The notes beneath the pieces are model-generated. The model ran no database searches. It saw only the letters and a program-made list of their open reading frames with translations, and had not been told where the DNA came from. The translations under genes were made by a program, and so were the position numbers. DNA of 64,000 nucleotides, taken from assembly GCF_000026545.1 (NCBI RefSeq), contig NC_011601.1. One strand, given 5' to 3'. Source of the DNA: Escherichia coli O127:H6 str. E2348/69 (GTDB lineage Bacteria; Pseudomonadota; Gammaproteobacteria; Enterobacterales; Enterobacteriaceae). The number at the start of each line of letters is the position of its first letter. The stretch's first letter is position 1. Positions 60,397-60,639 of this stretch are shown in pieces.

Positions 60397-60639
60397 ATGA
60401 AAAAAGTTCTGTATGGCATTTTTGCCATATCTGCGCTTGCGGCGACTTCTGCGTGGGCTGCACCTGTACAGGTGGGCGAAGCGGCAGGGTCGGCAGCAAC
60501 GTCGGTTTCGGCGGGGAGTTCCTCCGCGACCAGCGTCAGCACCGTAAGCTCGGCGGTGGGTGTCGCGCTCGCGGCAACCGGTGGCGGTGATGGTTCTAAT
60601 ACCGGGACCACCACAACCACGACCACCAGTACCCAGTAA
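60397..60639 (+). CDS. yjbE: secreted Ser/Thr/Ala-rich small protein
   Basis: 80-aa ORF with signal peptide ([21 protein letters not shown]) and low-complexity tail ending [12 protein letters not shown]. Confidence 0.85.

Follow-up and report, generated by a model that had tools for sequence, protein, structure and literature searches.

The E. coli gene yjbE has an unbroken series of threonine codons near its end, and the question that this locus raises is whether such a series behaves as a simple-sequence repeat that changes length from strain to strain, or as a segment of protein whose length is held. The initial annotation leaned to the first answer, proposing that slippage on the codon repeat can vary its length between strains and so change the glycosylatable or low-complexity tail of a secreted protein. 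The locus was studied in a 64,000-nucleotide stretch of Escherichia coli O127:H6 str. E2348/69 (the window, whose first letter is position 1 of all coordinates given here), and by comparison with the complete E. coli genomes and with related species. The reading that we regard as probably correct is that the tract encodes a conserved protein motif of fixed length, a C-terminal block of the form T7-ST(Q/R), whose slippage variants are rarely fixed.

The gene had been named yjbE from its letters alone, and that identity is borne out. Its product matches Pfam PF11106 (YjbE) with residues 1-79 aligned to positions 1-79 of the 79-position profile (E=5e-33; 113.6 bits, the cutoff being 27.9), and in RefSeq E. 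coli genomes, DNA 100% identical to the window ORF is annotated yjbE. The gene stands at the head of the order yjbE-yjbF-yjbG, in agreement with RefSeq. Directly downstream are YjbF (PF11102) and then a YjbG/GfcC-type protein (PF20616 + PF06251), yjbH lying outside the profile scan; upstream are pgi (58388-60043) and then a 350-bp AT-rich spacer. The product is predicted to be Sec-exported from a basic N-terminus, a hydrophobic core and an A-x-A site read by eye, and the mature protein is of low complexity, with 13 T, 12 S, 11 A and 9 G in 59 residues. Exopolysaccharide production involves the yjbEFGH operon, which is under Rcs control (PMC8117528, PMC8208086). The exopolysaccharide linked to it is distinct from colanic acid, and disruption of the operon leads to colanic-acid mucoidy (PMC8117528, PMC8540638, PMC8208086). 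Rcs itself becomes active when yjb function is lost. The threonine richness of YjbE has been described before (PMC8540638 Table 1). Judged by its sequence, the window gene is the known yjbE, with no difference in kind. Two long antisense ORFs of 144 and 82 aa overlap it on the minus strand of the window (60280-60714 and 60378-60626); they are probably by-products of GC-rich Ala/Gly/Ser/Thr codons and not genes. The features of the locus and the alleles of the threonine tract are collected in Table 1.

Table 1. Features of the yjbE locus in window coordinates, and codon alleles of the threonine tract in E. coli (TRF, Tandem Repeats Finder).
Feature	Coordinates	Strand	Sequence, basis or remark
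yjbE CDS, 80 aa plus stop	60397..60639	+	ORF list; Pfam PF11106; first gene of yjbEFGH
Predicted Sec signal peptide, cleavage after AWA, before APVQ	60397..60459	+	Read from sequence; conserved in family alignment
Most conserved YjbE block, residues 54-79	60556..60633	+	78-species orthologues; family alignment down to 41% identity
8-bp direct repeat GACCACCA, first copy	60606..60613	+	Within period-15 tract 60606-60628
Seven Thr codons, codons 71-77	60607..60627	+	ACC ACC ACA ACC ACG ACC ACC; sequence; TRF period 3, score 30
Period-6 tract ACCACAACCAC, 1.8 units of ACCACA	60610..60620	+	Computed; unit gained or lost in 9-Thr and 5-Thr alleles
8-bp direct repeat GACCACCA, second copy, 15 bp downstream of first	60621..60628	+	Computed; 12-Thr allele
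yjbF, next operon gene	60753..61391	+	Pfam PF11102 YjbF, E=1e-63
7 Thr, allele A (window)			ACC ACC ACA ACC ACG ACC ACC
7 Thr, allele B			ACC ACA ACA ACC ACG ACC ACC
7 Thr, allele C			ACC ACC ACA ACC ACA ACC ACC
7 Thr, allele D			ACC ACA ACA ACC ACA ACC ACC
9 Thr, T9a			Allele A plus ACCACA
9 Thr, T9b			Allele C plus ACCACA
5 Thr, T5a			ACC ACC ACA ACC ACC
5 Thr, T5b			ACC ACA ACA ACC ACC
5 Thr, T5c			ACC ACC ACG ACC ACC
12 Thr, T12			Exact 15-bp duplication between the two GACCACCA copies; one genome

The codons of the run stand exactly as they were first quoted and encode seven consecutive threonines. They were also said to come before the stop, which is right as to neighbourhood but not adjacency: AGT ACC CAG (Ser-Thr-Gln) intervenes, followed by the TAA at 60637-60639 and then by a second TAA, and the span originally assigned to the run, 60595-60639, reaches from Ser67 to the stop. 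As a protein feature, the run is beyond chance, a stretch of at least seven Thr arising in 0.03% of composition-preserving shuffles of mature YjbE. As a DNA repeat it is weak to marginal. Tandem Repeats Finder describes it as period 3, 7.3 copies and 78% matches with a score of 30, which is the minimum permitted and falls below the default threshold of 50, and the longest perfect period-3 tract in the window allele is only 8 nt. Other periodicities run through the same bases: the period-6 tract extends over 11 nt in the window allele (A) and over 17 nt in C, and a tract of period 15, 23 nt long, has the two GACCACCA octamers as its boundaries. The 81-nt stretch 60577-60657 is matched exactly in only 22 of 5,420 genomes, so the window comes from a minor haplotype. 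At 60649 the window carries C (GTATGCATCC) in place of the T found in nearly all E. coli (GTATGTATCC).

The length of the run was then counted over the species. yjbE was found in 5,420 of 5,426 complete E. coli genomes, the remaining 6 giving no match at all, and one of the 5,420 copies is on a record labelled as a plasmid. About 5,315 of the 5,420 genomes (98.1%) have seven Thr, 85 (1.6%) have nine, 18 (0.3%) have five, and a single genome, strain Res13-Lact-ER07-18, has twelve in a product of 85 aa. One more genome has a frameshifted yjbE, annotated as a pseudogene, and this may be an assembly error. The counts were built from BLAST identity bands and spans across the 5,420 genomes and from direct reading of 12 sequences. 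When all 5,420 genomes were ranked by identity to a 75-nt five-Thr query, 14 were exact and 5 near matches, 5,316 had the identity that seven Thr should give and 85 the identity that nine should give; variants with three or more additional mismatches could sit unseen in the seven-Thr band. Among the ranked spans, within at most 2 extra mismatches, no genome of the 5,420 has 4, 6, 8, 10 or 11 Thr. The genome collection is clonally biased, so that the 2% share of variants does not equal a population frequency.

The nine-Thr allele was first hinted at by one genome whose span to an 81-nt query was 6 bp longer and whose product is 82 aa. An independent check used a 49-mer specific to nine Thr and having no 28-mer in common with the seven-Thr alleles A and B. 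It returned the same 85 genomes, divided into 31 of T9a (exact) and 54 of T9b (one mismatch), and it also matched 347 genomes of the seven-Thr allele C over the first 33 nt only. The five-Thr alleles were reached through an early panel query of 103 variants and 6.1 kb, which was confounded by the seven-Thr alleles C and D and by an alternative 3' flank. Exact look-up of YjbE with 2-11 Thr in a 15-billion-protein collection was uninformative, giving no match even for the wild-type 80 aa. The canonical 80-aa YjbE (RefSeq WP_000757333.1) is absent by exact look-up, and its cluster is absent from the word-indexed homology search, which returned only aberrant, partial or frameshifted clusters and gave the first hint of T7 in other taxa. 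Low-complexity proteins seem to be poorly caught by both kinds of search.

The changes that keep the frame come only in steps of 6 bp, with the ACCACA unit gained in T9a and T9b and lost in T5a, T5b and T5c, or of 15 bp. One, two and three copies of ACCACA correspond to 5, 7 and 9 Thr, and the 15-bp duplication to 12 Thr. A change by a single codon was seen nowhere in the 5,420-genome census, so the behaviour is not that of the simple codon repeat that the locus was taken to be. The sizes of the events track the longest tracts, which are 11-17 nt at period 6 and 23 nt at period 15, against 8 nt at period 3. Because the 6- and 15-bp steps match the longest repeat tracts in this way, the length variants fit replication slippage or misalignment.

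The variants also appear to have arisen more than once. Over about 280 bp of flank from 12 genomes, T5a occurs on two flank haplotypes, T9a and T9b are on different haplotypes, T5b is on a haplotype carrying an intergenic insertion, and T5c and T12 share a further haplotype that is common to one T5a genome. Since variant lengths sit on several codon-allele and flank backgrounds, the slippage would be recurrent, and at least 6-7 independent length-change events would be implied unless recombination moved alleles, independence being judged here on the flanks of those 12 genomes and not on a genome phylogeny. Length in E. coli is therefore not invariant, alleles of 5, 9 and 12 Thr having been found when the tail was compared across genomes. 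The expectation of slippage between strains is sound to the extent that these alleles exist (18, 85 and 1 genomes) and that the repeat structure fits such an origin, but they are rare, at about 1.9% of the 5,420.

Does this make the tract a mutational device? A hypermutable simple-sequence tract that changed length frequently from strain to strain and tuned the secreted tail, as a contingency locus or VNTR does, would account for the 104 genomes of 5,420 with 9, 5 or 12 Thr and for the 6-7 or more apparently independent events behind them. It would also suit the perfect (ACCACA)2.8 of allele C, which is proportionally richer in length variants (54 T9b against 347 T7-C), a skew that clonal sampling could equally give. 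The long perfect tract of a contingency locus is absent, however, the perfect stretches being 8 nt at period 3 and 11 nt at period 6 in a short, imperfect repeat whose score is 30 against the default 50. Frequent or frame-switching change is absent as well: 98.1% of genomes have one length, all variants but one are in frame, and the sole frame-shifting change is the pseudogene noted above. What was found is the apparently independent recurrence of an in-frame VNTR, on different codon alleles and flank haplotypes. The yjbE tract is a minor in-frame VNTR-type polymorphism and not a contingency locus. Like other in-frame VNTRs, it shows strain-to-strain differences in the number of copies of a 6-bp unit, with the reading frame preserved and the change recurring on different backgrounds. 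Unlike them, it is very short, about 2% polymorphic and strongly conserved in modal length between species. Neither the long and highly polymorphic repeats of surface proteins nor the tracts that shift the frame in phase-variable genes behave in this way.

One published event was considered as a possible Thr expansion and set aside. A mucoid evolved clone carries a 'yjbE insertion (+9 bp)' (PMC8540638), but the matching yjbH '+8 bp' entry appears as 'IS1 +8 bp' in the breseq table of the parent paper (PMC6754418). For yjbE, too, an IS1 insertion is the likeliest event, the 9 bp being its target duplication.

The comparison between species bears most directly on whether length is held. Orthologues were gathered by a YjbF search of one genome per GTDB species, followed by extraction of the small ORF upstream of each match, and the sampling is thereby unbiased toward the run. 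Exactly seven Thr follow GSNTG in 73 of the 78 species orthologues, drawn from about 30 genera of Enterobacteriaceae that include Escherichia, Citrobacter, Salmonella, Enterobacter, Lelliottia and Kosakonia, as well as Kluyvera, Buttiauxella, Cedecea, Siccibacter, Franconibacter and Atlantibacter. The 73 T7 runs are written in 46 synonymous codon arrangements, and all four Thr codons are found at interior positions. At codon 2 of the run, the T7 species have ACC 25 times, ACG 32, ACA 15 and ACT 1, and the amino acid is constant. Because there are 46 codon arrangements across the 73 runs, the synonymous sites are saturated, and it is the identity and the number of the residues that are held. 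Such a record contradicts the notion of a low-complexity tail that is free to vary. It is also unlike that of a tuning tract, which should not keep seven Thr in 73 of 78 species as its codons freely change. The hypermutable reading is largely refuted by these cross-species data, and we consider it improbable.

The constancy extends beyond the run. In most of the 78 orthologues, the block of residues 54-79 is essentially constant with scattered substitutions, and the N-terminal half of mature YjbE varies both among the orthologues and in the family. An exhaustive HMMER search of 1.84 billion cluster representatives recovered only 29 relatives, and most of the full-length ones at 45-60% identity end in NTG-T7-ST, NT or GT, a few having T3, T5, T8 or interrupted runs. 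The only non-T7 species among the 78 are five of the Kluyvera group, which have TTTTT-S-TTT-STQ (T5-S-T3). The tail of this group (loci L073, L074, L077, L080 and L082) is fixed at two residues longer, and its length is that of the nine-Thr minority allele of E. coli.

Two other accounts of the tail can be weighed against these data. The first is that the threonines are a compositional by-product of a disordered region rich in Ser, Thr, Ala and Gly, in which length is irrelevant. The composition of the mature protein given above would allow this, as would an AlphaFold2 monomer model (31-sequence alignment; mean pLDDT 56, pTM 0.24), which is of low confidence and gives the tail no regular structure. 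The shuffles show, however, how seldom that composition yields such a run. Conservation in the family is highest over the run and its flanks (GDGSNTG...ST), the rest of the mature region being variable, and the length is kept on a DNA substrate that demonstrably slips. We therefore hold this account to be very unlikely.

The second is that the selected element is nucleic acid, acting on mRNA stability or on translation pausing at the 3' end of yjbE, with the threonines incidental. According to a passage of PMC8208086 citing Ferrieres 2007, yjbE mRNA exceeds yjbFGH mRNA in abundance and stability, and the fold of the intergenic sequence immediately 3' of yjbE contains strong hairpins (z = -4.0). 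Those hairpins are outside the Thr run, and within the run the third codon positions vary freely among species with the amino acid fixed in the 73 T7 species. Because of that free variation, a role at the RNA level is unlikely and the signature is one of selection on protein; we give the nucleic-acid account as little credence as the by-product one.

The explanation that we prefer, a protein motif constrained in length, would operate as follows. Seven ACN codons would inevitably form short imperfect DNA repeats, here the ACCACA hexamer tract and the two GACCACCA octamers 15 bp apart. Slippage or misalignment on these would occasionally add or remove 6 bp, or duplicate 15 bp, and the outcome would be the in-frame 5-, 9- and 12-Thr alleles seen in about 2% of sequenced E. 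coli. The variants would recur and be tolerated for a time, and would almost never be fixed between species. Because they appear to arise repeatedly yet almost never fix in this way, selection would seem to hold the number of threonines at seven. The property under selection most likely resides in the protein, as a Thr segment of fixed length that either is recognised by partners such as export components of the YjbF/G/H type or accepts sugar or polysaccharide in O-linkage. The rarer alleles would be neutral to mildly deleterious, and not adaptive switches. As a counterpoint to strict constraint, nine Thr in 85 genomes are at least tolerated, and since a tract longer by two residues is fixed in the Kluyvera group, seven Thr is not absolutely required.

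What the motif might do can be approached by asking which known segments it resembles. O-glycosylated Ser/Thr-rich linkers and mucin-like segments are like the end of YjbE in being exported, Thr-rich and probably unstructured. Generic linkers of this kind usually drift in length and sequence, in contrast to the seven fixed in YjbE. The strict seven and the conserved flanks would suit a measured docking or acceptor segment better than they would a generic glycosylated linker. The AlphaFold2 model, at its low confidence, is neither for nor against a docking role of the tail. We know of no glycosylation of YjbE, and none was found in the literature searched, which offers only a speculation on its counterpart GfcA (PMC8592465).

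A more specific proposal, which we advance as a speculation with perhaps a small chance of being right, is that T7 is an acceptor or handle of measured length. The yjb exopolysaccharide, or in the case of GfcA the O-antigen capsule, would be O-linked to it or threaded on it non-covalently, and the conjugate would be passed to the outer-membrane machinery of YjbF/G/H (GfcB/C/D). If that were true, it would explain why these operons need their first small gene, why there are exactly seven Thr across genera, and why the same tail is found in distant stand-alone YjbE-like genes. Three such distant genes of the YjbE family, at 45-56% identity, keep the NTG-T7 tail (L094, 4001-4240; L095, 4001-4252; L097, 1221-1466), and no YjbF/G/H-type genes are present within 1-4 kb of them. 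The idea of a partner encoded in cis, of the YjbF/G/H type, is weakened because these T7-tail relatives are without adjacent yjbFGH-type genes.

The known protein closest in arrangement is GfcA (YmcD), a 'threonine-rich inner membrane protein' encoded by the first gene of the group 4 capsule operon gfcABCDE-etp-etk. The gfc and yjb operons are treated as homologous (PMC11494523, PMC8592465), and GfcA is described as Ser/Thr-rich with 30% Thr, a published speculation being that it receives O-antigen and takes GfcD as its export route (PMC8592465). Like yjbE, its gene is a small first one ahead of paralogous B/C/D genes, and the protein has a signal-like N-terminus, a stretch rich in S/T/A/G, a hydrophobic stretch of Gly/Ala/Val, a GDG motif and a Thr-rich C-terminal tail, which in K-12 ends ...GDGGSHNTSTTTSTTR. 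Unlike YjbE, GfcA has its longest Thr run (T6) in the N-terminal half, and its C-terminal tail is interrupted (TSTTTSTT), with no T7 run. Homology between the two sequences was not detected, GfcA having no Pfam match at E<=1 and BLASTP of YjbE against GfcA giving E=65. The resemblance is one of operon position, layout and composition only.

The exact conservation of T7 length and the spectrum of rare 5-, 9- and 12-Thr alleles are a modest new detail on a gene whose existence and Thr richness were already known. They make a small worked example of a slippage-prone coding repeat that selection would hold at one length. Codon repeats should not be assumed to be variable, because T7 persists across some 30 genera despite what appears to be recurrent slippage. 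Within a protein that is otherwise uncharacterised, conservation peaks at the T7-ST block, which provides a short target motif for experiments, relevant to YjbE/GfcA-type proteins in the export of exopolysaccharide and group 4 capsule. In practical terms the finding is of limited importance.

Two of the stand-alone YjbE-like genes have neighbours of other kinds. One is near a gene for a phage-tail-like GpJ-domain protein, a GDSL lipase gene and a copy of IS1. A phage origin was considered for this gene on account of the tail-protein-like neighbour and was dropped, there being no match to a phage protein and the DNA matching only IS1. Another stand-alone YjbE-like gene adjoins a ParE toxin gene.

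Finally, the spacer between yjbE and yjbF has features of its own. In the window it is 113 nt long, with no T-run terminator, and it folds at -36.8 kcal/mol (z = -4.0 against shuffles). Two strong hairpins lie within 60644-60730, at about 60644-60705 and 60707-60730, the latter being ATAACCACAC-TCCG-GTGTGGTTAT. They may be related to the greater stability of yjbE mRNA relative to yjbFGH mRNA that PMC8208086 mentions in citing Ferrieres 2007. In E. coli the spacer occurs in at least three length classes of 63, 113 and 186 bp (L002, 464-526; L001, 470-582; L003, 462-647). Directly behind the stop codons the short form differs in sequence, and the long form contains an additional GC-rich insert that the T5b genome (L006) has too.
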